Assembly (NCBI GenBank): GCA_965208615.1
Contig: CBDBPB010000002.1
Coordinates: 92,666-156,665, forward strand
DNA length: 64,000 nucleotides
Direction of reading: 5' to 3'
Source of the DNA: Spirochaetota bacterium
Lineage (GTDB): Bacteria > Spirochaetota > UBA6919 > CBDBPB01
In this document: positions 21,210 to 61,847 of the stretch, piece by piece
How the letters are laid out: the number at the start of each line of letters is the position of its first letter
How positions within the stretch are numbered: the first letter of the stretch is position 1
Notes under the pieces: model-generated
The model's input: the letters and a program-made list of their open reading frames with translations, nothing else
Told to the model about the DNA's origin: nothing
Database searches by the model: none
Position numbers and translations under genes: made by a program

Positions 21210-21240
21210 TTTTATAATTTGTAGACATATTATAGTTTTT

Positions 21241-22712: not shown

Positions 22713-23070
22713 TCACATATTATGTATAGGTATGGCAATTGGGAATATTAAAACCTCTTATTAAAATATAGCTATCCCCTTTGAAATAGGTTTAAGTACT
22801 TTTTCAGGATGCGGAGAGGATGATATATCCTGTGAGGCTCTGGGTGATTGTGATAAAAATGTTGAAAGTCAGCTAGAGAAAGCAAAAGATGAGGTTACAG
22901 CTGCAAATAAAGAGGTTAACGATGCAAAGAAAGAGGTTAAAAAGGATAAAAAATTAACGCCTGAAGAATTAGAAGAAGCAAGAAAAAAATTAGAAGAAGC
23001 AAGAAAAAAATTAGAAGAAGCAGAAAAAAGATTAAAAGAAGCAAAAAAGATATTAGAAAAGCTAGAAGAT

Positions 23071-25524: not shown

Positions 25525-25554
25525 TAAGTATATTTATTTAGTCCGTTAAAATTA

Positions 25555-25580
25555 AGGGGAGTATAGCTCCTCTTTTTTTT
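25555..25580 (+). terminator. Rho-independent terminator shared by the paralog family
   Basis: aaggggagtatagctcctc followed by T8; same element after all three paralogs. Confidence 0.7.
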
Positions 25581-25762
25581 ATGGTTTTTATAACAAAGTA
25601 GCATAAATAGCAGTTATAGCATAGATAGACTTGACTTATCCTTCTATAAATATTATCCTATGTGATAGAACAAGTTAATTTACTTTTAATTCTATAGTTT
25701 TTAATAAAAAGTTGTTTTTTGTTTAGTTTGAGTTATCTTATAAAAAAACAAGGAATTAAGTT

Positions 25763-27136
25763 ATGACAAAAAAGAATTATTTAAACATTTTAATAATACT
25801 ATTAATTAGTATTTCGTTAGTTAGGGGCAAGTGCGATTCCGATAAGGTAATAAGTCCTCCTTCTGATGGTACAGAAAGGCCAGAACCAGTGGAAGAAAAG
25901 GTTTGTAAGATAACAACAGATACGGATACTCGTAGAGGTGTTGTTACTTGTGAAAAGAATACTACTAATTGTCAAGGTGAGTGGGTCGTAGGATGTCGTC
26001 CATCTAACGGTATACTTATTCCAAAAGCTCAAAAAGATCAAATTTTTGTAAAAGCTTTAAACCAAGATGAAAGGCGCTCTAATGAAGATGGAAAGTCCTG
26101 GACAACTGCCTTTAGTGATCTTCAAAAAGGTATTAAGTATGCTTTTGAGAATAATAAAAAGATGGTATATGTAGCCCAAGGGACTTATAAGCCTACTAGT
26201 TATCCAAATGGTGGTAGTGGTGATGATCGTTATAAGCATTTTTCATTAAGGAATGGTATAGAGGTTATTGGAGGCTTTCCCGGTGAAAAGCTTGATGAGC
26301 CTAATAATCCTGAGCAATATGAGACTATTCTAAGCGGTGATATTGGAACTAAAGATGATAGAGATAACGTCTATCATGTTTTTTATCATCCTGATGGTAC
26401 AAACCTAAATAACTCAGCAAAGCTAGCTGGGGTTACAATTACCCAAGGCTATGCTTATTTTGCGTCTCCTGATGTTAATGAGCCTCGTAAGTTAGGAGGG
26501 GGCATGTATAATTTTAAGAGCTCTCCAACGTTAACAACTGTGACTTTTCGTAATAATACGGCTAGAGATGGAGGGGGCATGTATAATTTTAAGAGCTCTC
26601 CAACGTTAACAGGTGTGGCTTTTACTGAAAATACGGCTATTACCGGAGGGGGCATGCGTAATTATAAGGATAGCTCCCCAACGTTAAAAGATGTGACTTT
26701 TACTAAAAATGAGGCTACTGTTAACGGAGGGGGCATGCATAATTGGGATAATAGCTCTCCAAAGTTAACAGATGTGACTTTTACTAAGAATAAGGCTACT
26801 ATTAACGGAGGGGGCGGCATGTATAATTATTATTATAGCTCCCCAAAGTTAACAGGTGTGACTTTTAATAGTAATACGGCTAGTAGGTACGGAGGGGGCA
26901 TGTTTAATTTTGTTGGTTGCTCTCCAGAGTTCATAAGTAATGTGGTTTTTAATAAAAACATTGTTGGTAGTGTTGGTAGTGACCTAATAAGCTACGGCGG
27001 GGCTATTTATAATAGTAAGACTTCAGCCATAACAGGCACTCCAACCTATGGAACGGGTGATGATGAAAATAAAAAGGTTGTCAAAAATACAGATGGCACA
27101 TATAGTTTTGTAAAGTCAAACAGTTGGCCATGGTAA
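25763..27136 (+). CDS. Pmp-like repeat surface protein, paralog 2 (short form)
   Basis: Own N-terminal hydrophobic leader; one Cys module, then the same beta-helix-like region and about seven GGGM units; same C-terminal segment (ITGTPTYGTG.DENKKVVKN) and 3' flank as paralog 1. Confidence 0.7.
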   Translation: MTKKNYLNILIILLISISLVRGKCDSDKVISPPSDGTERPEPVEEKVCKITTDTDTRRGVVTCEKNTTNCQGEWVVGCRPSNGILIPKAQKDQIFVKALNQDERRSNEDGKSWTTAFSDLQKGIKYAFENNKKMVYVAQGTYKPTSYPNGGSGDDRYKHFSLRNGIEVIGGFPGEKLDEPNNPEQYETILSGDIGTKDDRDNVYHVFYHPDGTNLNNSAKLAGVTITQGYAYFASPDVNEPRKLGGGMYNFKSSPTLTTVTFRNNTARDGGGMYNFKSSPTLTGVAFTENTAITGGGMRNYKDSSPTLKDVTFTKNEATVNGGGMHNWDNSSPKLTDVTFTKNKATINGGGGMYNYYYSSPKLTGVTFNSNTASRYGGGMFNFVGCSPEFISNVVFNKNIVGSVGSDLISYGGAIYNSKTSAITGTPTYGTGDDENKKVVKNTDGTYSFVKSNSWPW

Positions 27137-27165
27137 TAAGTATATTTATTTAGTCCGTTAAAATT

Positions 27166-27192
27166 AAGGGGAGCATAGCTCCTCTTTTTTTT
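27166..27192 (+). terminator. Rho-independent terminator (family 3' flank)
   Basis: ggggagcatagctcctc hairpin followed by T-run. Confidence 0.7.
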
Positions 27193-27293
27193 ATGGTTTT
27201 TATAACAAAGTAGCATAAATAGCAGTTATAGCATAGATAGACTTGACTATATATTTAATTTTGATATATATTTTTATAGTGCATAGAAGACTA

Positions 27294-33735: not shown

Positions 33736-35359
33736 TTGGGACAACAGTTAAACTTGTTAGATATTGATAATGATAATAATTATATAACTATTAGTGAGGC
33801 ATCTAAGTGGGCAAGTGAATACTTGAACAGAAGTGTGACTAAGTCTCAAATATCATATTTAATAAATTATGCTAGGGTAGGGTCAATTAAGATTGATAGA
33901 AAAAATCATATAAACCTTAATGAGCTAAAAAATTATTATGACAATAGAAGTGAGAATGAAAAAAATAAGATTCTTAATGGGTTAAGTAAAGACGTTAACC
34001 TGTCCCTTTCATTTTCTGAATATAATGAATATGAGAGGACAAAGCATGTTCATAGGTTGCATCCATATAAAGGCAAATTTATTACTCAGCTGGTGGAGTA
34101 TTTTTTAAGTAATCATACTGACGGCTTTAAAAAAGAGGTTTTCTTTAAACAGGGAGATATTGTATTAGATCCTTTTGCAGGCTCTGGAACTACTTTAGTT
34201 CAAGCTAATGAGTTAGGAATACATTCTATTGGTATTGAGCTTTCTAGTTATAATGCTATTATTTCTAGAGTAAAGACTGAAAGCTATGAAATGGACAAAA
34301 TGAGACAAGAAGGTGATAGAATTATAGAGCTATTATATCACCTTAAAAAAGAGACTACTGCTTATTATGATGAGTTAGATAAGCTTATTAGGTTATATAA
34401 TGAAAAGTACTTCCCATCTCCTAAATATCGAAAGGCTATACATGCTAAAGAGATTAATGAAAAGAGCTATGGGAAAGAAGTATTAGGTAAATTTAACTTT
34501 GATTATGAAAAAGCTATTAAAAAAGTTTAATAAAATACACCCAGATAAATTATTTGAGAATAAAAGTCATCATAGTTTTTTAGAGTATTGGCTTACAGAG
34601 GATATCCAAAAAGAGATTAAAGTTATAAAAGAGATAATTGAGCTTATCAAAGATGAGAAGTTAAAATATCTTTTTATGGTTATATTGGGCAGGGCTGTTA
34701 GATCGTGTAGAGCAACAAAACATATAGATTTAGCAACTTTAACAAAGCCTCAATTTGCTCCTTATTATTGTGAGAGAAAGCATTTTAAATTGTGTAGACC
34801 AGTAAATAGTTTATTAAGTCATTTTAAGAAATATTATTTGGATTCGATTAGAAGGATTAAAAGTTTTAGTATGCTTAAAACTAACGCTTTAAATCTTGTT
34901 TTAGAAGGTGACTCATATAGTATTGAGCTTGATAAGGTGTTGGAGGTTAAGTCTTTTTTTAATAAAGCAGGTAAATATAAAATTGATGGGATATTCACAT
35001 CACCTCCTTATGTTGGTCAAATTGATTATCATGAGCAACATCTATATGCTTATGAGATTTTTAATTTGCCTATGAAAAAGGATAGAGAAATAGGGATATT
35101 AGGTCTTGGTAAAAGTAAAAAGGCAAGGGATCAATATTCTAAGGGTATTACAAAAGTATTTAGAAATTTGAAATCTTATTTAAAACCTTATGCTAACTGC
35201 TTTATAGTTGCTAATGATCGGTTGCAATTGTATCCAGATATAATAAATAAGTCAGGATATGAGCTTGTAAATGAGTTTAAGAGACCTGTACTAAATAGAG
35301 TTGAGAAAGATAGACGAGTATATGAAGAAAGTATTTTTCATATAAGGCCTAAAAGTTAA
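33736..35359 (+). CDS. DNA amino-methyltransferase (N6-A or N4-C), read as one gene with +1 shift in an A6 run near 34523-34528
   Basis: First ORF carries HRLHPYKGKF and SAM motif VLDPFAGSGTT; second ORF carries catalytic motif TSPPY. The second frame is open from 34487, so one extra A joins them. Confidence 0.65.
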
Positions 35360-35361
35360 AT

Positions 35362-35844
35362 ATGTCATTATCAGGTGAAACACATTATCAGATTGCTGGG
35401 CTACTTAAAAAGGCAGTTATAAAAAAGTTAGATAGTTATGCGATGTATTCATTTATTCACTCGATGAACACAACCCTTGGAATGTCAATATGGGAGCAGA
35501 TAGCTAAAATATTAGCTAAAGGTGCTGGAATGGAAGTTAAACGACAATATAAACTATTAGGTGAAATAGATAAACCTACTGAAGCTTTAATTGATGACAA
35601 TGCACAAGTTGAAACGAATTTAGCTATTCCCTATAATCCTTATCATCCTAAACCTTATGAAAGGTGGACTCTTGTTGGCCTTTTTGATTTAGACAGGGAA
35701 CTGTACGCAGGAGAAGATTTCTGGAACTTTGTAGCTAATGATGACATTTATAATGAATTATTAAATGTTTTTGAAGAAGTTGGTAATGAGTTAAGGCCTA
35801 AAATTGATAATAGATTTGCCCAATTTAGAGTCAATTACAATTAA
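35362..35844 (+). CDS. Hypothetical protein (160 aa) immediately downstream of the methyltransferase
   Basis: ORF only; no nuclease motif recognised by eye. Confidence 0.4.
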   Translation: MSLSGETHYQIAGLLKKAVIKKLDSYAMYSFIHSMNTTLGMSIWEQIAKILAKGAGMEVKRQYKLLGEIDKPTEALIDDNAQVETNLAIPYNPYHPKPYERWTLVGLFDLDRELYAGEDFWNFVANDDIYNELLNVFEEVGNELRPKIDNRFAQFRVNYN

Positions 35845-45946: not shown

Positions 45947-46402
45947 CATTATATAAGTGGGTTTATAACTATTTATTAGAGTAGTTTTTATGAATGATAG
46001 TTTATTATTAGAACAGTAGGGTGCTGATGTTGTTATTGCAAGGGATAGTAAAGTGTTTATAGCTGATAAACTATCAAAAGTAAATAAAAGACAACTAAAT
46101 GAGCTTTTTGTTCTTTGAATTGAACTTCGTGGTAATAGCGGTTACAAGAGGTTTGGAGAGGTGCTTGACAAGCTTAGCATTCCATATAATAGTTTAGATA
46201 ATGGTCTTAATTCATTAGATAGTATATTTACTAAAGTTTTTTAAATAGTTGTTTTCTTTATTATATTGACCTTTTATATAGATATTACTATCTTTATTTT
46301 TCAATAAATAGTATTTGAAAATATATTCTTTATACTATATTTTATATATTATTATTCATTTGCATAATTTATTAACTGCATAAGGCAGGGGCGAGAGTAT
46401 TT

Positions 46403-48088
46403 ATGGAAAAGACAGGAGCACAGATTACCATAGACTTTTTAAAGCATCATAAGGTTGAGGTTATATTTGGTATACCGGGTGGAGCTACCTTACCTATTTA
46501 TGATGAGCTTTATAAGGCTGATATAAGGCATATTCTAACGAGGCATGAGCAGGGTGCAATACATGCGGCTGAGGGTTATGCTAAGGCAACTGGTAAGGTT
46601 GGAGTTTGTTTAGCAACATCAGGTCCAGGGGCTACTAATTTAGTTACTGGATTAGCTGATGCTAAAATGGATTCTGTTCCTATATTGGCTATTACTGGAC
46701 AGGTTGCAACGGGGTTTATAGGGACTGATGCCTTTCAGGAGGCTGATATTTATGGTATTAGCACTCCCATAACTAAGTATAACAAGTTGGTTAAGGATGT
46801 GGATGAGTTGGCATCCACTTTAGAAGAGGCATATTTTATAGCTGGTTCGAGGCGTCCAGGTCCTGTTTTGGTAGATATTCCAAAGGATATTCAAATTGCA
46901 AAGACCAGGAAGGTTAAGTATGTTAATGCTTTACCATTTGTTATACGTGAGCGTTATGAGAATATTGAGCCTGTGGGTAATTTTAAGGCTCTTGCTACGG
47001 CGATTAATGAGGCTAAGAGGCCTCTTATTTATGTTGGTGGTGGTGGGGTAATATCTGGTGCTGATAAAGAGATTATTGCTTTGGCTGAGAAAGCTAACAT
47101 ACCAGTTACTACAACCTTAAAGGGTTTGGGTGCTTTTCCTAGTGCACATAAACTGTATCTTGGTATGCTTGGTATGCATGGTACAAGGGCCGCTAATAAT
47201 GCTGTATGTCAGTGTGATTTATTAATTGCTTTAGGGGCTAGGTTTGATGATAGGGTTACTGGTAAGTTGGATGCATTTGCTAGGCAGGCTAAAATTATTC
47301 ATATTGATATTGACAAGGCTGAGTTAGGTAAGCTTATTACCCCTACTTACTCTATTGTAGGGGATCTTAAAAAGGCATTATATATTATTCTTCCTTATAT
47401 TGATCTTAAGGATAGGGCTGAATGGGTTGCTCAGACTTATAAGTGGAAGAGTGATTATCCTCTAACCTATGACAGAGAGGATAAGGATAATATAAAGCCT
47501 CAGTATTTTTTAGAGGAGCTTAGTGAGACTATAAAGGCTGATAACTTTATTATATCAACGGATGTTGGACAGCATCAGATGTGGTCAGCACAGTTTATTC
47601 AGTTTTCCAATACCAGGACTTTTTTAACATCAGGTGGATTGGGTACAATGGGTTATGGGTTTCCAGCGGCTATGGGTGCAAAAGTGGGTTGTCCTGACTC
47701 TAATGTTATTCTTATTGCTGGAGATGGTAGTATTCAGATGAACATTCAGGAATTAGCCACAGTAGCTAGCGAGAATATAGCTGTAAAAATAGTTATTTTG
47801 AATAATGGTGTTTTAGGCATGGTTCATCAGTGGCAGGATATGTTTTTTGAAAAGCGTTATTCTCATTCGGAGTTTAAGGGTATACCTGATTTTGTTAAGC
47901 TTGCTGAAGCTTATGGTTTAAATGCTAAGCGTATAACTAATAAGAGTGAGGTTAAAGAGGGCATTGACTTTCTTTTAAACTCTGAGAAAACGGTTATATT
48001 GGATGTAATTATACCTTCTAATGAGATGGTTTTTCCTATGGTACCTGTTGGAGCCTCTTTACACGAAATGATTGATTATCAGGAGTAG
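46403..48088 (+). CDS. ilvB: Acetolactate synthase large subunit
   Basis: TPP-enzyme family architecture; N-terminal GIPGGATLPIYDEL; followed by ilvN. Confidence 0.85.
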   Translation: MEKTGAQITIDFLKHHKVEVIFGIPGGATLPIYDELYKADIRHILTRHEQGAIHAAEGYAKATGKVGVCLATSGPGATNLVTGLADAKMDSVPILAITGQVATGFIGTDAFQEADIYGISTPITKYNKLVKDVDELASTLEEAYFIAGSRRPGPVLVDIPKDIQIAKTRKVKYVNALPFVIRERYENIEPVGNFKALATAINEAKRPLIYVGGGGVISGADKEIIALAEKANIPVTTTLKGLGAFPSAHKLYLGMLGMHGTRAANNAVCQCDLLIALGARFDDRVTGKLDAFARQAKIIHIDIDKAELGKLITPTYSIVGDLKKALYIILPYIDLKDRAEWVAQTYKWKSDYPLTYDREDKDNIKPQYFLEELSETIKADNFIISTDVGQHQMWSAQFIQFSNTRTFLTSGGLGTMGYGFPAAMGAKVGCPDSNVILIAGDGSIQMNIQELATVASENIAVKIVILNNGVLGMVHQWQDMFFEKRYSHSEFKGIPDFVKLAEAYGLNAKRITNKSEVKEGIDFLLNSEKTVILDVIIPSNEMVFPMVPVGASLHEMIDYQE

Positions 48089-48094
48089 AATATA

Positions 48095-48586
48095 ATGAAA
48101 CACACTATATTATTGAGGGTTTTAAATAGTGCTGGGGTAATGTCTCATGTAGTTGGTTTATTTGCAAGACGTGGATATAATATTGATAGTATTGCTGTTG
48201 GAGTATGTGATGACCCTAGTGAAAGTGTTATTACCTTTGTAGTGGATGATAAGGGTAGTTATGATATAATAAAGCAGGTTGATAGTCAACTTCAGAAGTT
48301 ACCTGGGGTAATAAGTGTTAGGGACTTTTTATATAATGAGTCTGTTAATCGTGAATTAGCACTTATACTTGTTAGGTTTAAGAACAAAGAGGAGCAGTTA
48401 GAGGCTCTTGAGATTGTAAATGCTTTTGGGGCTAATGTTGAGGATATGACTGAGGATACTCTTTTAATAGACATAGCTAGTTTGAGTAGAAAGGTACGTG
48501 CACTTATTGGCATATTGTCTAAGAAGTTTGAGATTATAGAGATGGCAAGAACGGGTGAGATTGCTCTTCCATATCAGACTGGATAG
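48095..48586 (+). CDS. ilvN: Acetolactate synthase small (regulatory) subunit
   Basis: ACT-domain N-terminus (HTILLRVLNSAGVMSHVVGLFARRGYNIDSI). Confidence 0.8.
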   Translation: MKHTILLRVLNSAGVMSHVVGLFARRGYNIDSIAVGVCDDPSESVITFVVDDKGSYDIIKQVDSQLQKLPGVISVRDFLYNESVNRELALILVRFKNKEEQLEALEIVNAFGANVEDMTEDTLLIDIASLSRKVRALIGILSKKFEIIEMARTGEIALPYQTG

Positions 48587-48587
48587 A

Positions 48588-48992
48588 TTATTTAATTCCT
48601 TTTAAGTGTAAGAATGATATATATTGTTTATCTACTACTTTTATATGGTTTAGTAGCCAATCTATTAAGAACCTTCCGATTTGTGGTATTAGGAATTTGT
48701 TATCTCCGTTATTAAGTTTACTTTTAAAGTCTTTTATTTTGTTTTTAAAGGTATTATGGATTTCTTTATGCTCGTCAAATTCGGGATAGTTATTTTCAGA
48801 TAATAGATTTTCTTCGTACGCAAGGTGATAATCCATATAATTAAATAAGGAGTCTATTATATTTTTTATTTTACTATTATTATGTCTACTTATTAGTAAT
48901 TCATTAATTAACTCTACTAGTTTTTTATGTTGCTTATCAATTTCTTTTATATCGATGTTATAACTTTTATCCCAATCGATTACTAGTTTCAT
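48588..48992 (-). CDS. Hemerythrin-like metal-binding protein
   Basis: Spacing of His/Glu ligands typical of bacteriohemerythrin (IDxQHKxL...H...EE...H). Confidence 0.6.
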   Translation of the reverse strand: MKLVIDWDKSYNIDIKEIDKQHKKLVELINELLISRHNNSKIKNIIDSLFNYMDYHLAYEENLLSENNYPEFDEHKEIHNTFKNKIKDFKSKLNNGDNKFLIPQIGRFLIDWLLNHIKVVDKQYISFLHLKGIK

Positions 48993-49404
48993 TTATTAGT
49001 TGCCCTCCTTTTGCGGTTTAAAACTGAACTTAGTATTATATTGAGTTTTTAAAATTATAATTTTGTTTTTGTATTAGGAAATACAATATAATAACTAAAA
49101 AAAGTAAATCAATATGATCATTGTTATTTTATAAAATATTTGTTAGTCAATCTATTTTTTTATTAAATGTTATAGATATTAAAACGTTTACATAATATTT
49201 ACATCTACCACCCAATAACTAAATCATTAACCAATACTAACTCTGAATTGTTAAATTATCCTAAAACATTTTTTATTATATTTATCCGCAATCTTGTTAA
49301 AAAAAGTGTTAATTAAAATATAGTAAAAATGCTTTAATTAATAACTATATCCACTTGTTTACTAAACCAATTTATAACTATAAAATAACTAAAGGCTATC
49401 AACA

Positions 49405-51021
49405 ATGAAAAGTAAAATAATTGCTTTAAAATTAACTATACTACTTATTATGGGATGTAGTGATACTAAACATTCTCCAACATATTATTCTCCTAAAAAA
49501 AAAGATAGTAGTGCCTTATTTAGTAATAGATATTCTGAAAAAAAAGCATACCTCAATGAAAAAAGAGTCTTGCCCCCTGAGCTAAAGGATAGAGAAAAAT
49601 ATGAGTATTACGGCGAGAACCCCAGAACCAGTCCACTGATTAATCCTGTTAGCACTTTCAGCATTGACGTGGATACTGCTAGCTATACAAATGCAAGAAG
49701 ATATATTAATAGAATGAATAAACTACCTCCAAAGTCGTCTATCAGAGTGGAAGAGTTCATAAACTATTTTGACTATAATTATCCTCTACCAAAAAGTAAT
49801 AATCCCTTTTCGATTAACTTTGAACTTGCTCAGTCCCCCTTTGACAACAATAGACTATTACTGCATATAGGCCTTAAGGGCAAGGAAATACCATTCGAAA
49901 AAAGACCTGCATCTAATTTGGTATTTCTTCTGGATGTATCTGGATCTATGAACTCAGAGTTTAAGCTGGGACTGCTTAAAAAAGCACTTATTATGCTTAC
50001 TGATCAGATGACTGAAAAAGATAAAGTTAGTATTGTTGTATACGCTGGTTCATCCGGAGTTGTTCTACTACCCACTAATGGTAATAAAAAAGCTGAAATT
50101 AAAAATGCTCTTAATAGGCTAAGTGCTGGTGGTAGTACTGCTGGATCAGAGGGTATTCAGTTGGCGTATAAAATGGCTGAAAGGGCTTATATAAAAAACG
50201 GCATTAATCGTGTTATCCTTGCCACTGATGGGGATTTTAACGTTGGTATAACAGATCACAAGGAACTTATTACTCTTATTGAAAATAAAAGAAAATCTGG
50301 GATAGCCTTAACTGTTTTGGGTTTTGGTATGTGGAACCTTAATGATAGAACTATGGAACAGCTAGCTAATAAGGGTAATGGTAACTATTTCTATATTGAT
50401 AGCTCAAACGAAGCAAAAAAAGTATTGGTTAATGAATTAGGCTCTACCCTTCAGATTATTGCTAAGGACGTTAAAGTTCAGATCGAGTTTAATCCTAAGT
50501 ATATATCCTCTTATAGGCTTATTGGATATGAAAATAGAAAGCTATCCAAAGAGCAGTTTGACGATGACACCGTTGATGCTGGGGATATTGGTGCAGGACA
50601 TAGTATAACAGCTATTTATGAGCTTACTATGACCAGTAGAGCTAAGGATCAGATGAATCTACGCTATGGTGAGGAGCATAGCACTATTAAAAAAGGTATT
50701 AAAAAAACTAATACCACCTTTAAAGATGAAATTGCCTTTTTTAAACTTAGGTATAAGCCTGATAACGGCAAGGTTAGCAAGTTGATTACAAAACCTTTGT
50801 TAAAAAGTGATCTTATTACTAATAAGCCCAGTAATAATTTTATTTTCTCAGCGTCTGTGGCATACTTTGCTCAAAAGCTTAGGGAGAGCAAGTATTCTAA
50901 GGGTATAGGTTATAATAAGATTCTTAATATGATGGCTAGTAGTAAAGGTGAGGATAAATGGGGATATAGACAAGAATGCGAAAACCTTATTAGAAAAGCA
51001 AAGACTATATCAAAGGGATAA
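49405..51021 (+). CDS. VWA-domain lipoprotein (YfbK-like)
   Basis: Lipobox IMGC; MIDAS motif LLDVSGSMN with downstream SAGGSTAGSEG and ATDGDFNVG. Confidence 0.65.
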   Translation: MKSKIIALKLTILLIMGCSDTKHSPTYYSPKKKDSSALFSNRYSEKKAYLNEKRVLPPELKDREKYEYYGENPRTSPLINPVSTFSIDVDTASYTNARRYINRMNKLPPKSSIRVEEFINYFDYNYPLPKSNNPFSINFELAQSPFDNNRLLLHIGLKGKEIPFEKRPASNLVFLLDVSGSMNSEFKLGLLKKALIMLTDQMTEKDKVSIVVYAGSSGVVLLPTNGNKKAEIKNALNRLSAGGSTAGSEGIQLAYKMAERAYIKNGINRVILATDGDFNVGITDHKELITLIENKRKSGIALTVLGFGMWNLNDRTMEQLANKGNGNYFYIDSSNEAKKVLVNELGSTLQIIAKDVKVQIEFNPKYISSYRLIGYENRKLSKEQFDDDTVDAGDIGAGHSITAIYELTMTSRAKDQMNLRYGEEHSTIKKGIKKTNTTFKDEIAFFKLRYKPDNGKVSKLITKPLLKSDLITNKPSNNFIFSASVAYFAQKLRESKYSKGIGYNKILNMMASSKGEDKWGYRQECENLIRKAKTISKG

Positions 51022-51026
51022 TTAAC

Positions 51027-52094
51027 CTATCTTATAAATCCTTTAGTTTTGTTAAACTCTTTTATAAACATGGATATTCCTTTTGCTATACCTGATGCAC
51101 TATTATTTTGGTAGGTTCTAGTTTTTATATATTTAGCTTCTTTTTTATTTGATAAAAATCCTACCTCTACTAGGATAGAAGGAAGATTATTATAGGTGAT
51201 AACAAAAAAAGGTTTACGAGCCTTAATACCGCGATTAATAGTATACCTTTTTACTTTTTTATATAGCTCATTATTAACAAGCTCTGCTAATCTGTATGAT
51301 TCTTTACTAATTTCCAGATTATACATTTGAGTAATGATACTCCTAGCTTCTTTGTTATAGGAAAGAGGTTTTACTAGTTTTGTTATATAAGTTATCCTGT
51401 CTTTTCTCTTATCATTAACTTTGGAAGAATAAAAAAAGGTCTCAATACCGTAGCTATCCTTATTCAGTGAGGCATTGGCGTGTATGCTTACGAATAAACC
51501 ATGGTTATTTGACTTAGTAAGTTTAATTGCCATAAGGTTTCTTTTCTCTAAGGACAAAAATCTATCATCTTGTCTGGTAAGGATTATTGGTATATTTGGA
51601 TTAGAACGTTGTAAAAGCTTTTTTACCCTTTTTGCTATGGATAAATTTATATGTTTTTCTTTTATACCGTTATTAATGTTACCTGGGTCTTTACCGCCGT
51701 GTCCTGGATCAATTAGTATAAACTTGATTTTAGTATTTTTATCTTTTGCTTTATAAGCCGGATTAGCATATTTAGTTTTTAGAGACTTTAACCTATGAAT
51801 AAACATCTTAGGTAGTATTATTCGTCCATTTTTAGTGGTAATGGGGTAGTCTAATAGCCATATTTGTTGTTTTCCATTTAGACCTTTCACAATGGTGGAT
51901 CTTGAGTTTAAAAGAAAGTGTATTTTGTATAAGTTATTTTTTAGGATAAAGCTTTCTTTTTGGATGTTAATTTCTAGTTTAAATCTGTTTTTTTTCAAAA
52001 AAGCTTTTAGGTATATATAACTGCTATTTTTGCCTTGTACTACATTTACCAGTAATAAAGTAATAATGATTAAGGTTATCTTTTTTAGAACCAA
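51027..52094 (-). CDS. N-acetylmuramoyl-L-alanine amidase (Amidase_3 family)
   Basis: Catalytic-domain motif ILIDPGHGGKDPGN; signal peptide. Confidence 0.7.
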   Translation of the reverse strand: MVLKKITLIIITLLLVNVVQGKNSSYIYLKAFLKKNRFKLEINIQKESFILKNNLYKIHFLLNSRSTIVKGLNGKQQIWLLDYPITTKNGRIILPKMFIHRLKSLKTKYANPAYKAKDKNTKIKFILIDPGHGGKDPGNINNGIKEKHINLSIAKRVKKLLQRSNPNIPIILTRQDDRFLSLEKRNLMAIKLTKSNNHGLFVSIHANASLNKDSYGIETFFYSSKVNDKRKDRITYITKLVKPLSYNKEARSIITQMYNLEISKESYRLAELVNNELYKKVKRYTINRGIKARKPFFVITYNNLPSILVEVGFLSNKKEAKYIKTRTYQNNSASGIAKGISMFIKEFNKTKGFIR

Positions 52095-52225
52095 TTATAA
52101 TTCCCCTTATAAAATAAGGGATCGGGATTTTATCTTGTTAGTTTAAGGCGTGAAGGATATTTTAACTTAAATATATAAAACTATAGCTTAATATTAAAAG
52201 ATATTGCTAGCTTTATACTTATACA

Positions 52226-52807
52226 TTAATCATGGCTATACATTCTTTGTTCTTTATCTATTTTTGGTAGTCTTAATAGTTGTTTTTCTATTGGTTTTTT
52301 TAACTCAGCTTCTATATACTTAGCACGATCGGCAATAGTGGGAGGATCTTTATCAATACCCCTTAGGAACTTCCATAGCCATCCTGGCCCTTCACTAATT
52401 TCTGGATTTAATTTTATAGCTTTCTTATAATCTGCTACTGCGAGTTTGTATTCACCCATATAGTCGTTTACTATACCCCTATTGGCATAGGCGCCAGCAA
52501 ACTCACTATCAATATCTATAGCCTTATCTATGTTCTTAAGAGCCATATCAAGCTTATTTAACTTTAGATAAGCTATACCTAAACCAAGATAGGCATTAGG
52601 ATGTTTAGGATTAACTTTAATAGCTTCTTTAAACTCGTCTATTGCCTCGTTAAAATTACCATCTTCTAAACGATGATTACCAGATTTAACATGATAATCT
52701 CCTGGTGTATCGTCTCTGTTAACGTAAAAATAAGCCACAATTCCAATACCAATTAATATAATAACAGCTAATATACCGCTATATGAACTTTTACCAAAAC
52801 CAGTCAT
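52226..52807 (-). CDS. TPR-repeat protein with N-terminal membrane anchor
   Basis: Three or more TPR-like units (AYLGLGIAYLKLNKLDMALKNIDKAIDID...). Confidence 0.6.
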   Translation of the reverse strand: MTGFGKSSYSGILAVIILIGIGIVAYFYVNRDDTPGDYHVKSGNHRLEDGNFNEAIDEFKEAIKVNPKHPNAYLGLGIAYLKLNKLDMALKNIDKAIDIDSEFAGAYANRGIVNDYMGEYKLAVADYKKAIKLNPEISEGPGWLWKFLRGIDKDPPTIADRAKYIEAELKKPIEKQLLRLPKIDKEQRMYSHD

Positions 52808-53053
52808 TTAGTTTGAACCTCCAAAGGTTTTATAAATTATTACTCGGGTAAATAAAAAAGCAAATGTCATTGATATAATAGCAGCAAAATATAAAGCTCT
52901 TTTTGTTACTTTTTCTAATTCTTCCTTAGATATTGCCCTATTATTCTTCTTCTGAAACCGGTTTATGCCCATATTAGTTATAAGCTTTCTAATAGGAAAA
53001 AATAATGCAGTGCCTAATAAAATAGACGAAATTGTGTACCATGCTGTTAGCAA
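52808..53053 (-). CDS. Small two-helix membrane protein (81 aa)
   Basis: ORF abutting the TPR gene start, downstream of the SSS transporter. Confidence 0.4.
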   Translation of the reverse strand: MLTAWYTISSILLGTALFFPIRKLITNMGINRFQKKNNRAISKEELEKVTKRALYFAAIISMTFAFLFTRVIIYKTFGGSN

Positions 53054-53178
53054 TGAAATCTCCTTTAGTTTTATTATTTGTAATAAGTATAATAAAAGAT
53101 TTAATATTAAGAAGTGAAAGTGTAAGGTAATAAAAATGTTTAGATAAGAGGGGCTAAGCCCCTCTTAATTATAGTTTA

Positions 53179-55143
53179 TTATGGTTTATCAGTATCCATT
53201 CTAGCGGAGTCTACATCTCCAATATCTTCAACCATGGCTACAACCTCTGTATCAGGAACAGTAGATAGTTGCATTTTATAGGCTAAGAACCACATCATAA
53301 AAATACCAACAAATAGCCAAATAATGTGCCATACCCATATAGAAGGCATACCAAATACCCATGTGCTATAGTTATTAGGATCACCAAAAAGAGTATTACC
53401 TATAACAGCACCAGGCCCTATTCCAAAGAAGAACCATACAATAGTTATGATCCATGCAGTAGGTACCAACGATTTTTTCTCAGCAGGTACACCAGCATGC
53501 TCTTTAAGATAGTCATGGTACTTCATTCTGTGTTTTGTTTCGTTATTATCTTGAGTAAAGAAACTAACAATTACAGCAGTACCAAAGTTAAAGAAAAACC
53601 CCCAGAATGCAGAGTGCATAGTAAGAGGCCATCTTCCCCATGGGTTTATTCCAATAGCTTTAAACAAGCTAGCACCAATGCTCTCAGTTAAGGTAACAGC
53701 AATTAACCCAAGAATTAGACCAAGAGTAACTCCTTGTCTTGTTAGCCATGGCCACCAACATATTCCAATAAGAGCAGGCCACATTTGAAAGCCATAAGCT
53801 ACAGCTAAACCACCAAGTAGCACCAAAGCGTCTTTAGAGAATGTCGCCACAATAAGAGCTAGTCCAGTAATAATAGCTACACCTATTCTACCAAATAGTT
53901 TTTGTGTTCCATGACCAGCCTTAGGATTAAGGAACCTTTTATAAATATCTCTGGTTAACATACCACCAGCGGTTGACATATAAGCCGCACCAGTGGACTG
54001 CATTGCCGCAAGAGCACAGACAGCTAATAAACCAACTAACCATGGAGCGCCAGTACTCATTAGGTGTATGAGTTCTGGTACTAATTGTCCTTGTTTACCC
54101 CATGGAAGGTCTTTTATTACATTAGAAATACCATTAGCCGAAGCCCATTCTATCATGCTTTTATCTGCGCCAAGTAAGTGAGCTCCCATACCCTGAATAG
54201 CAGTAAATACTATCAATATAATACCAATACCAGCAGAAGAAGCCCATACTTGCTGAGGAGCAAATGGCTTTGGATTCTTATTGGAAAAAGACCACATTGA
54301 GAACGCAGGAGCTGATTGAATACCCATAAGAGCAAACATATATGTTAATACCATAACTCCAGTCCATGCACCTCCACTAGCTTTGGCCAAGCTTGCACCA
54401 GACTTGACAAACTGTATCACCCCGGGTATGGCAATATAATGACTATAACCATCTATAGTTCTATTTGTGTCTACTTTTGCTAGTTCAGCAATACCTATGT
54501 TTAGCTTTTCAAAGCCACCAACAAAGGTTAGGGTAATAATACCTATTGCCACAATACCAAGAGCTAATAATACCCCTTGAGCAGTATCCACATATGCTAC
54601 AGCTCTTAAGCCTCCTGAAGCAACATAGATTACAACTACAATAGATAAAAGCCACATTCCAGCGGTAACAGGGAATAAGCCATCGGTTAACACGTTAAAA
54701 AGGAACCCAGATGCACGTAACTGTAGTCCTAAATATGGCACAGAAAATATTAACGCCACAATTACAGTTAGAATACGCATTGTATCAGACTTAAAGTAGT
54801 CAGAATACATCTCACCGGGAGTAATGTATCCAAAACGTTTACCTAATATCCATTGTCTCTTTAAAAAGAGTACCCCAGTAAACGGAATGGTGATAGCATA
54901 AAAAGATGCGTATGCATATTGAAAGCCGTCACGAAATACTAGACCAGGGTGTCCAACAAAAGTCCAGCCTGAAAAGGACGTTGCTGTTGCCGCTAATACA
55001 AATACCCATATTGGGATAGTTCGCCCTGCAATAAAGTAGTCAGAAGCTGTTTTTGCAGTTTTGGCTCCCTTAAAACCCCAGTATAGACAATATGCCCAAT
55101 ACAAGATAACAAACACAAATAACCAAATTACATGTGCTTTCAT
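53179..55143 (-). CDS. Sodium:solute symporter family transporter
   Basis: 654 aa, about 13-15 hydrophobic helices, SSS-family segments (GRTIPIWVFVLAATATSFSGWTFVGHPG). Substrate unknown. Confidence 0.75.
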   Translation of the reverse strand: MKAHVIWLFVFVILYWAYCLYWGFKGAKTAKTASDYFIAGRTIPIWVFVLAATATSFSGWTFVGHPGLVFRDGFQYAYASFYAITIPFTGVLFLKRQWILGKRFGYITPGEMYSDYFKSDTMRILTVIVALIFSVPYLGLQLRASGFLFNVLTDGLFPVTAGMWLLSIVVVIYVASGGLRAVAYVDTAQGVLLALGIVAIGIITLTFVGGFEKLNIGIAELAKVDTNRTIDGYSHYIAIPGVIQFVKSGASLAKASGGAWTGVMVLTYMFALMGIQSAPAFSMWSFSNKNPKPFAPQQVWASSAGIGIILIVFTAIQGMGAHLLGADKSMIEWASANGISNVIKDLPWGKQGQLVPELIHLMSTGAPWLVGLLAVCALAAMQSTGAAYMSTAGGMLTRDIYKRFLNPKAGHGTQKLFGRIGVAIITGLALIVATFSKDALVLLGGLAVAYGFQMWPALIGICWWPWLTRQGVTLGLILGLIAVTLTESIGASLFKAIGINPWGRWPLTMHSAFWGFFFNFGTAVIVSFFTQDNNETKHRMKYHDYLKEHAGVPAEKKSLVPTAWIITIVWFFFGIGPGAVIGNTLFGDPNNYSTWVFGMPSIWVWHIIWLFVGIFMMWFLAYKMQLSTVPDTEVVAMVEDIGDVDSARMDTDKP

Positions 55144-55547
55144 ATGATAAAGTACCTCCTTAGAAGTTTTACTATAATTAATGTATTTAATGATTAATTT
55201 AGAGATACTGATTATATTTTAAATTTTAGCTAAGACTATTTTTTATGGTGAGTTTGATTAATTTGCTTAAACCTAAAATCACATCAGTATAACTACACAA
55301 CTTATACAATATAATATAAAATATTTATTTATACAAGTAAAAAAGAAAAAATGTGCTTTAGGTTAGGGCTGACATGTGATTATTTTGATTAACATAAAAA
55401 AGGGATAACTATTTATATTTTATAATATAAATTTAATAAGTTTTGGTATATTTAAAGCTTTATTTTTTTTGGTAAAAAAATATTATATCGAATAATTGAC
55501 TATTAATTTTGAGTTATTAATAGTATATAATCATAATTTAGCAGAGG

Positions 55548-57392
55548 ATGTCTATGAAAAATACTAAATCTACAAACAGGAGATCATTTATATTATCTGT
55601 ATCACCGTTTAACATATTAAGTAGTTCAGAAGTTGAGCTACTTATACCTTCTATAAAGGAATTTACCTTTGAAGAAGATCAAATTATTGCAAAGGAAGGA
55701 GGAGAACCTGAGTTTTTTTATTTAGTTGTTTATGGAGTAGTTAAAAAGCGTTGTGATAGGGATGACATTTTGTATTACTATCCAGGGGATAGTTTTGATG
55801 TTACCTCACTTATTAATAATATAAATGAACATACCTTCGACGCTGACGAAAAGACTTTATGTATTGCTATACCTAAGGATACATTTCTTAAGTTGATGTC
55901 TATCAACAGTGCTTTTGAGAAGTACTATCTTCAGGACTTATCACAAAAGATACACTCTATGATAAACAAGGATGTTAATCAAGAGCTGGCATCATTTATG
56001 GCGGCTAAGGTGGAGGATAGTCTTATACACCCTGCAATTTGTGTTAGTGAGAAGACATCCATTTATGATGCTGTTAAGAAGATGAGTGAAAATCATATAT
56101 CTAGTATATTGGTCGATTGTCCAAACTGTAAGGGGGGATATGGTATAGTTACTGATACTGATCTTCGTAAAAAGGTGATATTAGAGAATCGGTCTTACGA
56201 AGATGATATAGGTAATATTACTACTAATAAGTTAATCAGCATTGATAAAGAGGATTTTCTTTATAATGCATTACTGCTTATGACAGAACACTCAGTAAAG
56301 CGTCTTATTGTTAAGGATGACAATAAGATAGTGGGTACTTTGGAGCAGATAGATGTACTTAGTACAATATCTCATAGATCTAGATTATTCCACGTTCGTA
56401 TTAACAGGGCTACTAGTGTTGAGGAGTTAAAGACAGCTAGTAAGGAGTCTATTTATATGATTAAGGCTTTGCTTAGTCAGGGAGTTAAGGTAATTAATAT
56501 AACGAAGCTCTTGTCTCAGTTGTACTCTCAGTTATTTAGGAAGCTTTTTGAGATATTGGCACCTAAGGATTTGATTGATAATTCATGTTTAGTAGTTTTG
56601 GGTAGTGAGGGTAGGGGGGAGCAGATTCTCAAAACTGATCAGGATAACGCTATTATACTAAGAGACGGATATAGAAATGATAATTTTAGGGAGATAATGA
56701 ATGCTTTTACTAATGCTTTGCTGGAGTGTGGTTATCCAAGGTGCAAGGGTAATATTATGGTATCCAATCCATATTGGGCAAAGTCTCTTAGGGAGTATGA
56801 GACTGAGATTAAGAACTGGATGGTAAATCTAAAGAATGAGGATATAATTAATATAGCGGCTTTATACGATGGTATTGCTGTAGCGGGGGACAAATTACTT
56901 TTGGATGAGTTAAAGGAGAGGTTTTTGCTATTGAGGAAGGATAAGAATTTATTATCCCAGTTTGCTTATCCAACAGTATATATAGCTACACCTCTTTCAT
57001 TTTTCAACAAGTTTATTTTGGATAAGGGTCACAATGATATGCTTGATATTAAGAAGGGTGGGATATTTCCGATAGTTCATGGTATTAGGAGTTTTGCGTT
57101 GGAGGCGAATCTTAGTGAGACTAATACTTTTGAGCGTATTGAGAAGATTAGTGAAATGGGGATTATAAAGAAAGACATAGCAGATGAGCTTATAGAGGCA
57201 TTAAACTTTTTATTAACTATTAGGTTAAGGGTTAGGCTGGATAAGACGGATAAGGGAGAAAAGCTTGATAATTATATTGATCCTAGGGTATTATCCAAGT
57301 TGGAGCAGGATGTATTAAGAGATATTTTAAAGATAGTCAAGCGTTTTAAGGAGTTAGTTAGTTATCATTTTAGGTTAGACAGTCTTGGATGA
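55548..57392 (+). CDS. cNMP-binding / tandem CBS / DUF294 nucleotidyltransferase-domain signalling protein
   Basis: cNMP-binding-like N-terminus, CBS pair, nucleotidyltransferase signature LVVLGSEGRGEQILKTDQDNAIIL. Confidence 0.7.
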   Translation: MSMKNTKSTNRRSFILSVSPFNILSSSEVELLIPSIKEFTFEEDQIIAKEGGEPEFFYLVVYGVVKKRCDRDDILYYYPGDSFDVTSLINNINEHTFDADEKTLCIAIPKDTFLKLMSINSAFEKYYLQDLSQKIHSMINKDVNQELASFMAAKVEDSLIHPAICVSEKTSIYDAVKKMSENHISSILVDCPNCKGGYGIVTDTDLRKKVILENRSYEDDIGNITTNKLISIDKEDFLYNALLLMTEHSVKRLIVKDDNKIVGTLEQIDVLSTISHRSRLFHVRINRATSVEELKTASKESIYMIKALLSQGVKVINITKLLSQLYSQLFRKLFEILAPKDLIDNSCLVVLGSEGRGEQILKTDQDNAIILRDGYRNDNFREIMNAFTNALLECGYPRCKGNIMVSNPYWAKSLREYETEIKNWMVNLKNEDIINIAALYDGIAVAGDKLLLDELKERFLLLRKDKNLLSQFAYPTVYIATPLSFFNKFILDKGHNDMLDIKKGGIFPIVHGIRSFALEANLSETNTFERIEKISEMGIIKKDIADELIEALNFLLTIRLRVRLDKTDKGEKLDNYIDPRVLSKLEQDVLRDILKIVKRFKELVSYHFRLDSLG

Positions 57393-58111
57393 CAGGGGTT
57401 AGTAAAAAGGTTATATCTTTGCATTGTATGTTATATATATATAGATATCGCATGGGTTCAATTATCTTTGATGTTGGAGCAGGATGTATTAAGAGATATT
57501 TTAAAGATAGTCAAGCGTTTTAAGGAGTTAGTTAGTTATCATTTTAGGGTTAGACAGTCTTGGGATGACAGGGGTTAGTAAAAAGGTTATATCTTTGCAT
57601 TGTATGTTATATATATATAGGTATTGCATGGGTTCAATTATCTTTGATGTTGGAGCAGGATGTATTAAGAGATATTTTAAAGATAGTCAAGCGTTTTAAG
57701 GAGTTAGTTAGTTATCATTTTAGGGTTAGACAGTCTTGGATGACAGGGGTTAGTAAAAAGGTTATATCTTTGCATTGTATGTTATATATATATAGGTATC
57801 GCATGGGTTCAATTATCTTTGATGTTGGAGCAGGATGTATTAAGAGATATTTTAAAGATAGTCAAGCGTTTTAAGGAGTTAGTTAGTTATCATTTTAGGT
57901 TAGACAGTCTTGGGATGACAGGGGTTAGTAAAAAGGTTATATCTTTGCATTGTATGTTATATATATATAGGTATCGCATGGGTTCAATTATCTTTGATGT
58001 TGGAGCAGGATGTATTAAGAGATATTTTAAAGATAGTCAAGCGTTTTAAGGAGTTAGTTAGTTATCATTTTAGGGTTAGACAGTCTTGGATGACAGGGGT
58101 TAGTAAAAAGG
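57299..58111 (+). repeat. Tandem array, ~175 bp unit, about 4.6 copies, reiterating the 3' end of the DUF294 gene
   Basis: Landmark tggagcaggatgtattaaga recurs at 57301, 57475, 57651, 57826, 58001. Copies differ mainly in G-run length. Confidence 0.85.
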
Positions 58112-58115
58112 TTCT

Positions 58116-58570
58116 ATCAGTCATTTTATTAGTGAAGATTTCAGTAGTTTACTTTTTATAGTTGTTATTTATCATAGAGGATTAGGCATACTTTTTTGAA
58201 GTTTTACACATAACGTCAACATGTAATATTTAAATAATCCGCTCTACGCCTTTATGGGACTGCAAATCCGTTAACACTTAATAAAGGTCTATAATTCTTA
58301 GTTCCAGTAAGGGATTCTTAATAGCTCCCGTAATGATGACTACTTGCATAAAAAGTGATATTTTGTGTTAATTACTAAGGCATTTAAACAGCACTTAAAG
58401 AGCATATAGGGGTAACCTGCTTGACACAGGAAAATAACTTTTCCATGAATATCTTAACTTTCCTGTTCCACAAAGAGATATAAAATACATCTGCCTTTAC
58501 GTTATATGTCTTCATTTTGCCTTGTATCCCTCGTCATTACTACGTCATAAAATGATAACTAAATTATCAT
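58116..58570 (+). repeat. Conserved noncoding block, copy B (paired with 21440-21859)
   Basis: Near-identical to copy A over its length, with scattered substitutions. Confidence 0.7.
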
Positions 58571-58860
58571 AAAAAAGAAGAGCCGTCCTCCCCTTAATTT
58601 TAACAAAAAAATAAACTATACTTACTAACTTTACTCAAAGTCTAAGCGTACAAGTTTATATGCATGTCTATTTTCAACAACCTAAACTTGATGGAGTGCC
58701 TGTTATACTAAACCATAAAAAAGAAAAGCTATATTCCCCTTAGCCTTAACAAAAAATAAATATACCTACCAGCCCTAACTCAAGGTCTGAGCGTACAAGT
58801 TTATATGCATGTCTATTGTCAACAACCTAAACTTGATGAAGTATCCGTTATACTAAATTA
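58571..58860 (+). repeat. Tandem array, 144-146 bp unit, about 2 copies
   Basis: Same unit family as 21860-22712. Confidence 0.75.
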
Positions 58861-59076
58861 TTACATATTATGTATAGGTATGCCAATTGGGAATATTAAA
58901 ACCTCTTATTAAAATATAGCTATCCCCTTTGAAATAGGTTTAAGTACTTTTTTTAGTTGTATTTTTCTTTGAGATTGATTACCTTATAGTAGATTTATTT
59001 TTAAATGATATAGCTTTATATGCGTTGGCCTATTAGAGCTTAACGTTTTAAGCTAAAAAAAACAATAGGGGGAATC

Positions 59077-61743
59077 ATGAAGAAAGTATTCTTTATTTTA
59101 CTAACTTTAGCTTTATTAACAGGATGCGGAGAGGATGATATATCCTGTGAGGCTCTGGGTGATTGTGATAAAAATGTTGAAAGTCAGCTAGACAAAGCAG
59201 ATAAAGATGTTGCAGCTGCAGAGGAAGAGCTAAATAAATTAGAAGTAGATGGGATAAATGATGGAAATAAAGAAGAGGTAGTAGGAAAAGTAGAAGATAT
59301 AGCAACAGGAGTACAGAAAGCAGTAGATAGCTTAAAAGATGTAGTCGAAGAAGAAAAACTAAAAAATATAAAAAATAAACTTATAACAATATTAAATAGT
59401 TTAACAGACGCAGACACAAAAAAAGTAAGAGAAATAGTAAATGTGCTAAAAACAGCAGTAAAAGGCCTAAAAACAGCAGTAGAAGCTTTAAAAGGCTTAG
59501 TAGACGAGGGAAAAGGAAAAAAGACCTGTAAGGTAACAAGTAATACGGATACTCATAGAGGCGTTGTTACTTGTGATAAAACTACTAAAACTAAGTGTGA
59601 TACTGATAAGGGTACCTGGGACCCACCAAGCTGTGAGCCGTCTGCTGGTACAGAAAGGCAAACACCAGTGGAAGAAAAGGTTTGTAAGGTAACAAAAGAT
59701 ACGGATACTCATACAGGCGTTGTTACTTGTGATAAAACTACTAAAACTAAGTGTGATACTGATAAGGGTACCTGGGACCCACCAAGCTGTGAGCCGTCTG
59801 CTGGTAAGGCAATTAAGGTTTGTAAGGTAACAAAAGATACGGATACTCATGCTAACGTTATTACTTGTGATACAATGGTTCAAAGTGAGTGTAGTAAAAG
59901 AGATGGTGAGTGGGGAGTGCAATGTACTAAATCTAATGGTATGCCTAAGATTAGGCTTTGTAAGGTAAAAAAAGATACGGATGATTATATCGGCGTTATT
60001 ACTTGTGATACAACTACTAAGGCTAATTGTCAAGGTGAGTGGGATTCACAAGACTGTAGGCCATCTGATGGTACTCCAATTAAGATATGTAAAGTAAAAA
60101 AAGATACGACTACTCATATCGGCATTGTTACTTGTAAGAAGACTACTAAAACTAAGTGTAATACTGATAAGGGTACCTGGGGGTCCACCAAGCTGTAATC
60201 AAAATCCTGGAGCTCTCATACCAGCTGGGGTTGTTTTTGTAAAAGCTGGAACTCGTACTACTAAAAACGGTAAAACCTGGAAAAACTGCTTATAGTGACC
60301 TACAAAAGGCTATTGATGAAGCTAAGAAAGCTAATAAACCTAAGGTATATGTAGCCCAAGGGACTTACAAGCCTACTGGTCATCCAAATGGTGGTAATGG
60401 TGGACGTGAAAAGCATTTTTCATTAAGGAATGGTGTAGAGGTTATTGGTGGTTATAAAGGTGAAAAGGTTGATGAGTCTAATAATCCTAACTACTATAAG
60501 ACTATCCTAAGCGGTGATAATAACGCCTATCATGTTTTTTATCATCCCGCTATTGCAAACTTAGATAAAACAGCAAAGTTAGTGGAGGTTACTATTACCA
60601 AAGGCAATGCTAATGGTAGTGATCCTCATGAATACGGAGGGGGCATGTATAATTATAATAGCCATCCCACTTTAACAACTGTGATTTTTGAGAGTAATAA
60701 GGCCGGATGGGGAGGGGGCATGTATAATGAGTATAGCTCTCCAGAGTTAAGAAATGTGACTTTTGAGAGTAATAAGGCCGGATGGGGAGGGGGCATGTAT
60801 AATAAGGATAATAGCAAGCCAAAGTTAACAAATGTGACTTTTACTTAGTAATGAGGCCTCATACGGAGGGGGCATGTTTAATATTAATAGTTCTCCAGAG
60901 TTAAAAGATGTGACTTTTGATAGCAATGAGGCTAAGCAATACGGAGGGGGCATGTATAATAAGGATAATAGCAAGCCAAAGTTAACAAATGTGACTTTTA
61001 CTAGTAATGAGGCCTCATACGGAGGGGGCATGTTTAATATTAATAGTTCTCCAGAGTTAAAAGATGTGACTTTTGATAGCAATGAGGCTAAGCAATACGG
61101 AGGGGGCATGGGTAATGAGAAGAGCTCTCCCACTTTAAAAGATGTGGAGTTTACTAGTAATACGGCCGACTTAGGAGGGGGCATGTATAATAATAATAGC
61201 TCTCCCAAGTTAACAAATGTGACTTTTACTAGTAATACGGCTAATAGGTACGGAGGGGGCATGTTTAATAGTGATAGCTATCCAACGTTAAGAAATGTGA
61301 CTTTTACTAGTAATGAGGCCTCATACGGAGGGGGCATGACTAATTATAAAACCTTTCCCACTTTAAAAGATGTGACTTTTACTAGTAATACGGCTACTAA
61401 AGGAGGGGGCATGTATAATTATAAAACCTTTCCCACTTTAAAAGATGTGACTTTTAATAGCAATGAGGCTAAGCAATACGGAGGGGGCATGTATAATAGT
61501 GATAATAGCAAGCCCACTTTAGATAATACGGTGATTTTTAATAAAAACATTGCTGGTAGCATTGAAGATAAAAAAGAAGGAAAAGGCGGGGCTATTTATA
61601 ATGTTGTTGGTAAAGATAATATTCCTGACTCAAGCATAACAGGCACACCAACCTATGGAACGGGTACTAATGAAAATAAAAAGGTTGTCAAAGTGGGTAA
61701 TACATATAAACTTGTACAGTCAAACCTTGAGTCAGGCCAGTAA
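59077..61743 (+). CDS. Pmp-like repeat surface lipoprotein, paralog 3, interrupted by three +1 shifts (about 60183, 60275, 60848)
   Basis: RBS plus lipoprotein signal peptide MKKVFFILLTLALLTGC. Six Cys modules, then the beta-helix-like region and about twelve GGGM units across three consecutive frames (ORFs 59077-60198, 60582-60848, 60874-61743). Confidence 0.65.
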
Positions 61744-61771
61744 GTATATTTATTTAGTCCGTTAAAATTAA

Positions 61772-61797
61772 GGGGAGCATAGCTCCTCTTTTTTTTA
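61772..61797 (+). terminator. Rho-independent terminator (family 3' flank)
   Basis: ggggagcatagctcctc followed by T8. Confidence 0.7.
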
Positions 61798-61847
61798 TTG
61801 GTTTTAATAACATTGAAATATTTATAGATGTAGGTTATATTTACTTA

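Follow-up and report, generated by a model that had tools for sequence, protein, structure and literature searches.

Unequal crossing-over and slippage are the established mechanisms by which long-period tandem arrays grow. In Ehrlichia ruminantium, repeats of this sort, the subject of a 2005 study by Collins and colleagues, reportedly duplicate gene ends and create gene fragments or pseudo-open reading frames. The long-period tandem repeats of E. ruminantium lie in non-coding DNA, where they gain and lose whole units (PMC10710844), and large tandem repeats are mostly non-coding and break assemblies (PMC7343930). Here we describe a 175-bp tandem array at the 3' end of a DUF294-family gene, in a 64,000-nucleotide stretch of contig CBDBPB010000002.1 (assembly GCA_965208615.1) that was analysed whole and is called the window below. 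Wolbachia carries variable number tandem repeat (VNTR) loci with periods of about 105 and 141 bp. The intergenic long-period VNTR loci of Wolbachia serve as strain markers (PMC3287509). Those arrays do not come from the coding end of a gene and their copy-number polymorphism is documented, whereas the present array is derived from a gene end and is seen in one assembly. Integrative elements also duplicate gene 3' ends, with attachment (att) sites at the ends of tRNA, tmRNA and protein genes.

The present array has the structure of a bacterial VNTR or minisatellite-like repeat: its units stand head-to-tail and their identity is high. By analogy it is another case of the known long-period tandem repeats, with the E. 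ruminantium set as the closest. Both consist of near-identical head-to-tail units of about 150-200 bp, in or edging intergenic DNA. In E. ruminantium, a reduced obligate intracellular alphaproteobacterium, the arrays are spread genome-wide and copy-number change has been seen between strains; here there is one such array, in a free-living genome and in one assembly. Within these 64 kb, long-period arrays are found only in or against two paralog loci.

The array was delimited with Tandem Repeats Finder (TRF), which places it at 57299-58118 with a period of 175, 4.7 copies, 98% matches, 1% indels and a score of 1587, the highest of any tandem array in the window. In a self-BLAST, 57299-57943 aligned with 57473-58118 at 98.3% over 649 nt with E = 0, so chance is excluded. 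These two results bear out the original prediction of a tandem array of about 175 bp and about 4.6 copies made from the 3' end of the gene; the start that it gave was right, and its end at 58111 fell 2-7 nt short, which is immaterial. The units are contiguous and without spacers, with start-to-start distances of 174, 176, 175 and 175 nt. The first base of the array is the third of codon 584 in the gene's 614-codon open reading frame (ORF), and each unit holds 94 nt of gene end, that is, the last 30 codons (LEQDVLRDILKIVKRFKELVSYHFRLDSLG) and the TGA stop, followed by 81 nt of downstream DNA. The number of codons agrees with what had been predicted; the downstream part had been put slightly too long, at about 85 bp.

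The layout can be written as (A-B)x4-A, where A is about 115-120 nt long (the gene end plus about 21-26 nt) and B about 55 nt. Unit 1 is the sole copy joined to the DUF294-family gene. Differences between the units are limited to two substitutions and to GG versus GGG at two G runs, for which all four combinations are present among the five units. The partial fifth unit agrees with the others through 58113; at 58114 it has C in place of A, TATC at 58115-58118 is again shared, and from 58119 on the sequence diverges.

The direction of copying was read from the protein. The Pfam match to DUF294_C covers residues 468-608 of 614, and a full-length alignment with 12 homologues (43-52% identity) shows the protein colinear with them to its last residue. 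Family-conserved positions occur in the part that the unit encodes, with the consensus LERDLLRDVFKIV..FKKFI.YHFKL among the 12 homologues. Because the C-terminus aligns end-to-end with its homologues, unit 1 is native and the other units are copies of unit 1. The match of the coding part to a conserved C-terminus and a natural stop thus shows that copying went from the gene to the array and that the gene did not capture a pre-existing repeat. The DUF294 gene is unaffected, since unit 1 retains the native tail and stop. In the public annotation the gene starts at 55554 and encodes 612 aa, and a protein 100% identical to its product (P0001) is recorded in the exact protein collection from the 168,053-bp source contig only.

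The 3' flank of the gene differs from that of its homologues. The closest DUF294 homologue is 52% identical (P0002), and its contig has the gene order DUF4212, symporter, DUF294 and RNase_T-type exonuclease. A profile scan of species-representative genomes gave 80 further loci, all at 44% identity or less, and scanning genome and metagenome collections with single proteins yielded no close relative. An RNase_T-type exonuclease gene comes next after DUF294 in 70 of the 81 other loci, nearly always starting within about 0-130 nt of the DUF294 end, and it is absent from the entire 64-kb window; with the exonuclease missing, the 3' flank of the gene is a synteny breakpoint. The sodium:solute symporter gene of the window is divergent from DUF294 and not co-directional with it (53179-57392). 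None of the 81 other loci has a long-period array touching the DUF294 end, and the only long-period arrays found anywhere in them are in a locus from a Thiomargarita metagenome-assembled genome, where they lie elsewhere in the locus.

On its other side the array runs up to a surface-protein locus. The conserved 5' block of that locus starts 22-27 nt past the array end, which agrees with the predicted abutment on a conserved block of what had been called paralog locus 3. This block is the relative of one at paralog locus 1 (58145-58857 against 21433-22133 at 91%; 58568-58952 against 22423-22804 at 93%). The other long-period arrays of the window, with periods of 109, 141-144, 145, 75-81 and 153-165 bp, are all internal to the two paralog regions; the 175-bp array directly adjoins one of these regions, and no long-period array was found in the remaining ~50 kb of the window. 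Since all such arrays are in or against the two loci, the neighbourhood seems prone to tandem duplication. At locus 1 the block follows the stop of the upstream peptidase gene by about 19-29 nt and opens with a 109-bp x2.3 array, so that the left edge of the module stands twice beside a tandem duplication, which again points to a locally recombination-prone neighbourhood.

The arrays inside the paralog blocks (109 bp x2.3, 144 bp x5.8 and 145 bp x2) are of the same period class and the same neighbourhood as the 175-bp array. They differ in being older (84-96% identity), in being non-coding and in coming partly from an inverted, terminator-bearing gene tail, and self-BLAST and a shuffle test found no sequence similarity between them and the 175-bp unit. 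The shared period class and the copy-number differences between the paralog loci suggest a common local propensity for tandem duplication.

Based on these observations, the array is probably a young VNTR-type amplification at a rearrangement junction, without a function of its own and with copies 2-5 as relics. Its mechanism of origin and its neutrality are both what we infer. The array would stand at a rearrangement breakpoint where the exonuclease gene was lost and the surface-lipoprotein/PMP locus came to lie beside DUF294. One illegitimate event would first have made two copies of the ~120-nt gene end about 55 nt apart, and homologous unequal crossing-over or replication slippage between these copies would then have brought the number to 4.7. 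The last copy may be partial because it was cut by the junction event, or because the first duplication spanned only that part. Since the array is non-integer, at least two steps are needed, and they could have come in either of two orders. In the first history, A-B was amplified first, and the last B and the DNA following it were later removed at the junction, where the TATC microhomology of 58115-58118 lies. In the second, the module already stood about 48 nt after the stop, much like its counterpart at paralog locus 1; duplication of a 115-120-nt piece, which took in ~55 nt of filler, came later and was followed by amplification. The layout (A-B)x4-A fits both histories equally, because B is without a source in the window and the ancestral state is missing. 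Copies 2-5 would be untranslated relics that gene callers read as spurious ORFs, and the array is probably still a substrate for expansion and contraction.

The original prediction had proposed slipped or unequal recombination at a junction that might mark the insertion boundary of the paralog module. The recombination part is reasonable as the standard way in which such arrays grow, and is inferred for this array. The synteny breakpoint agrees with a rearrangement junction; that a module was inserted, and that its insertion caused the array, is plausible but unproven.

Several points weigh against reading the array as a young and neutral amplification. The figure of 4.7 copies rests on one assembly, and exact-protein look-ups in a 15-billion-protein collection found the array-derived ORFs in no second assembly; such look-ups likewise gave no independent contig over the array or its right edge. 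No related genome was found that would display the array-free ancestral state. The differences between units are +1 changes in G runs, like those that break reading frames elsewhere in the window, and the assembly may be unreliable at homopolymer runs, exactly where the units differ. Finally, the absence of consensus signals, described below, may leave room for a protein-binding or spacing role.

At least seven reading frames in the window are broken, each by a +1 insertion in a short homopolymer run. Once its two extra bases are removed, NuoG aligns colinearly with homologues of 522-532 aa along 97-98% of its length. Such frameshifts are either consensus homopolymer errors or many fresh frameshifts, that is, unusually fresh gene decay. 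A look-up found neither intact nor truncated frameshifted products identical to those of the window; the intact neighbour nuoE is likewise without a match, so this result is uninformative. The G-run differences between units may thus be sequencing errors, and because of this doubt no conclusion on age or function is drawn from them. Were they errors, the units would be all but identical, and the array would then be either very young or undergoing homogenisation.

It is possible, if unlikely, that the copy number is itself an artefact of assembly, with two or three real copies unrolled into 4.7 units by G-run errors or strain variants. The presence of every GG/GGG combination in only five units would suit such an origin, as would the +1 homopolymer insertions at seven sites of the window, the collapse of a k=31 assembly at the array and the restriction of contigs with array-derived ORFs to the source contig. 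That k=31 assembly also gives evidence on the other side. A Logan contig from run ERR12408773 (L082), retrieved through an exact look-up of the neighbouring symporter protein, is identical to 46051-57328 of the window across 11,278 nt, free of mismatches and gaps. Its end at 57328 falls exactly 30 nt (k-1) into the array, and its terminal 30-mer has five occurrences in the window, one per unit. This is where a de Bruijn contig should break off when both the gene-to-A and the B-to-A contexts are present in the reads. A single-nucleotide polymorphism at 57298 would leave the same signature; as the contig end coincides with the predicted repeat boundary, a repeat is the parsimonious reading. The other ends of the two recovered Logan contigs (46051 and 62779) are not at window-internal repeats, so contigs end for other reasons too. 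We conclude that the reads support at least one duplication junction, with at least two left contexts at the predicted boundary, one of them B-to-A. Two more points argue against an artefact: other arrays on the contig (144 bp x5.8 and 75 bp x11) were resolved with ordinary divergence between units, and the two Logan contigs, 12.5 kb together, match the window without any difference.

A bolder reading takes the array as a live, copy-number-variable by-product of recombination that reshuffles the lipoprotein/PMP loci in a deep-branching spirochaete-like lineage. This is quite unlikely in our estimate; it builds on loci that have conserved 5' and 3' flanks and differing array copy numbers, one copy being without a start codon. 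If it were true, the array boundary would mark where conversion tracts or template switches start, and the length of the array could vary in the population, possibly affecting the DUF294 tail or read-through into the surface-protein locus.

We think it very unlikely that the array is a functional cis-element, that is, a set of binding sites, a length-variable spacer or a 3' untranslated region that tunes DUF294 or the lipoprotein gene about 960 nt downstream. It immediately precedes the conserved 5' block of what is probably a surface-protein locus, a position that would suit such a role; that block itself has arrays of locus-dependent copy number (144 bp x5.8 against 145 bp x2), and near-identical units are compatible with homogenisation. 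Against this, the greater part of the unit is simply the neighbouring gene's coding sequence. Within the units neither a sigma-70-like promoter on the + strand nor an intrinsic terminator was found, and the unit folds worse than shuffled controls (z = +1.99 as RNA, +1.05 as DNA). Rfam gave no match, whether the whole window was scanned at gathering thresholds or 57200-59100 at E <= 1, no inverted repeats were found in 57000-59100, and the window has no tRNA and no rRNA. The units accordingly look like neither a structured RNA, a terminator nor a promoter repeat. The other paralog locus is without such an array. No other copy of the unit or of its 55-80-nt non-coding part occurs in the window, and the non-coding part (55 nt) has no copy in viral contigs. 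Searches also found no copy of the coding part in JGI metagenome contigs, and the motif of the paralog block was not found in viral contigs.

Site-specific integration, with the gene 3' end as an attachment site duplicated at each integration, is an extremely improbable source of the array. As in an att duplication, there are several copies of the gene 3' end, of which the first leaves the gene whole, and the duplicated piece lies beside a possibly inserted module. Attachment-site duplications flank a kilobase-scale element that encodes an integrase, whereas here the copies are contiguous, 55 nt apart with no element between them, and the neighbouring module is unflanked, with no copy of the unit past its far side (none beyond 58118). 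There is no integrase-sized ORF between DUF294 and the isochorismatase gene, the ORFs of 58119-61812 being lipoprotein/PMP only. A gapped alignment had hinted at a recombination core common to the unit and the paralog block's left end, but this was rejected: the best local score, 23, is at chance level (shuffle mean 20.8 +/- 3.2), as 259 of 1000 shuffles did as well.

That the array supports programmed C-terminal variation, with unequal exchange swapping the last 6-8 residues of DUF294 or extending the protein, is scarcely credible: units 2, 3 and 5 would alter the tail if joined to the gene (...HFRLDSLG and stop would become ...HFRVRQSW...), but the G-run differences behind this may be errors, the variant tails are out-of-frame nonsense without a homologue, and the native tail is conserved across the DUF294 family. 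Switching by silent cassettes or of the shufflon type was rejected, the copies being direct and ~98-100% identical, with the region around them free of inverted repeats as above; so was a CRISPR array, in view of a whole 175-nt unit that repeats with no unique spacer.

The array does leave a trace in the public record. Four small proteins annotated there on the source contig, two of 75 aa and two of 44 aa, are only readings of the repeated gene end; they form two groups of two members each (P0121, 75 aa; P0122, 44 aa) that occur in the source contig only. The ATG that begins the 44-aa ORF overlaps the DUF294 stop (ATGA). Two artefactual ORFs that had been predicted, 57644-57874 and 57819-58049, are present where they were placed, and both have been called as proteins. 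The 44-aa ORF was also considered as a remnant of the lost exonuclease and rejected: it scores -1.8 bits against a profile of 59 exonuclease N-termini, and 165 of 392 scored shuffles were equal or better.

Table 1. Coordinates of the array, its units and the features around it, as positions in the window.
Feature	Position	Strand	Details
DUF294-family gene, intact	55548..57392	+	cNMP-binding, 2 CBS, DUF294 nucleotidyltransferase and DUF294_C domains (Pfam)
Unit 1	57299..57472	+	174 nt; native last 30 codons, TGA stop at 57390-57392, 80 nt downstream
Unit 2	57473..57648	+	176 nt; GGG at both G runs, one C>T substitution
Unit 3	57649..57823	+	175 nt; first G run GGG, second GG
Unit 4	57824..57998	+	175 nt; first G run GG, second GGG
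Unit 5, partial	57999..58118	+	120 nt; gene-end part and 21-26 nt
ORFs created by the reiteration	57389-57523, 57565-57699, 57644-57874, 57819-58049, 57994-58161 (overall 57389..58161)	+	spurious, from the ORF list; four of the five annotated as proteins
Junction between array and paralog block	58119..58140	.	no other copy in the window
Conserved 5' block of paralog locus	58141..59076	+	91-93% identical to 21433-22804; own 145-bp x2 array at 58568-58857
Surface lipoprotein / Chlam_PMP-repeat gene	59077..61743	+	Cys-rich, Chlam_PMP repeats; three +1 frameshifts
Frameshift sites	LysM-M23 peptidase ~20850; NuoG 32846, 33598; lipoprotein/PMP gene 60177, 60270, 60845; isochorismatase ~62190		

The two paralogous surface-lipoprotein/Chlam_PMP loci (21228-27252 and 58141-61812) were compared with each other. 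They share a 5' block of ~930 bp at 91-93% identity and a conserved 3' tail of ~110 nt, and the copy number of the block arrays differs between them: 144 bp x5.8 in one corresponds to 145 bp x2 in the other, and 109 bp x2.3 to x1. The 144/145-bp upstream units (21864-22709 and 58568-58857, + strand) are inverted, degenerate copies of the terminator-bearing tail of the PMP genes (25487-25639, 27100-27252 and 61700-61812). After the lipoprotein/PMP gene next to the array there is a good intrinsic terminator on the + strand at 61770-61790. Locus 1 is without 167 bp (junction 22804/22805 against 58953-59119) that in locus 3 carry the ribosome-binding region together with the ATG and the greater part of the lipoprotein signal peptide. 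The first gene of locus 1 therefore has the upstream block and no start codon, and could be a silent or dead copy.

The window has a GC content of ~33% and a very strong, nearly uniform GC skew of +0.2 to +0.4. Its genes include arsenite oxidase, genes for cobalamin, thiamine and branched-chain amino-acid synthesis and a 14-gene nuo operon, a content that indicates a free-living organism. The best named relatives of NuoG are from a 'Spirochaetota bacterium' (54%) and a 'Leptospirales bacterium' (47%), and the source lineage is probably deep, poorly sampled and spirochaete-like. Inside the nuo operon, between nuoG and nuoH, are genes for a DNA methylase and a TdeIII-type restriction endonuclease (33736-35844). 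The endonuclease seems to be split into two ORFs, 34499-35359 and 35362-35844, with the TdeIII Pfam match in the second only.

The array is thus a real and fairly ordinary feature, of modest practical value and raising no new biological question by itself. It accounts for four spurious protein calls in the public record, and it marks a place where this organism's assemblies will be broken or wrong in length. It also pinpoints a synteny breakpoint, at which the exonuclease partner of DUF294 was lost beside a repeat-rich surface-protein locus. Should its copy number prove variable, the array would offer a convenient way to tell strains apart in a poorly sampled lineage, and it would hint that the adjacent lipoprotein loci are recombinationally active.

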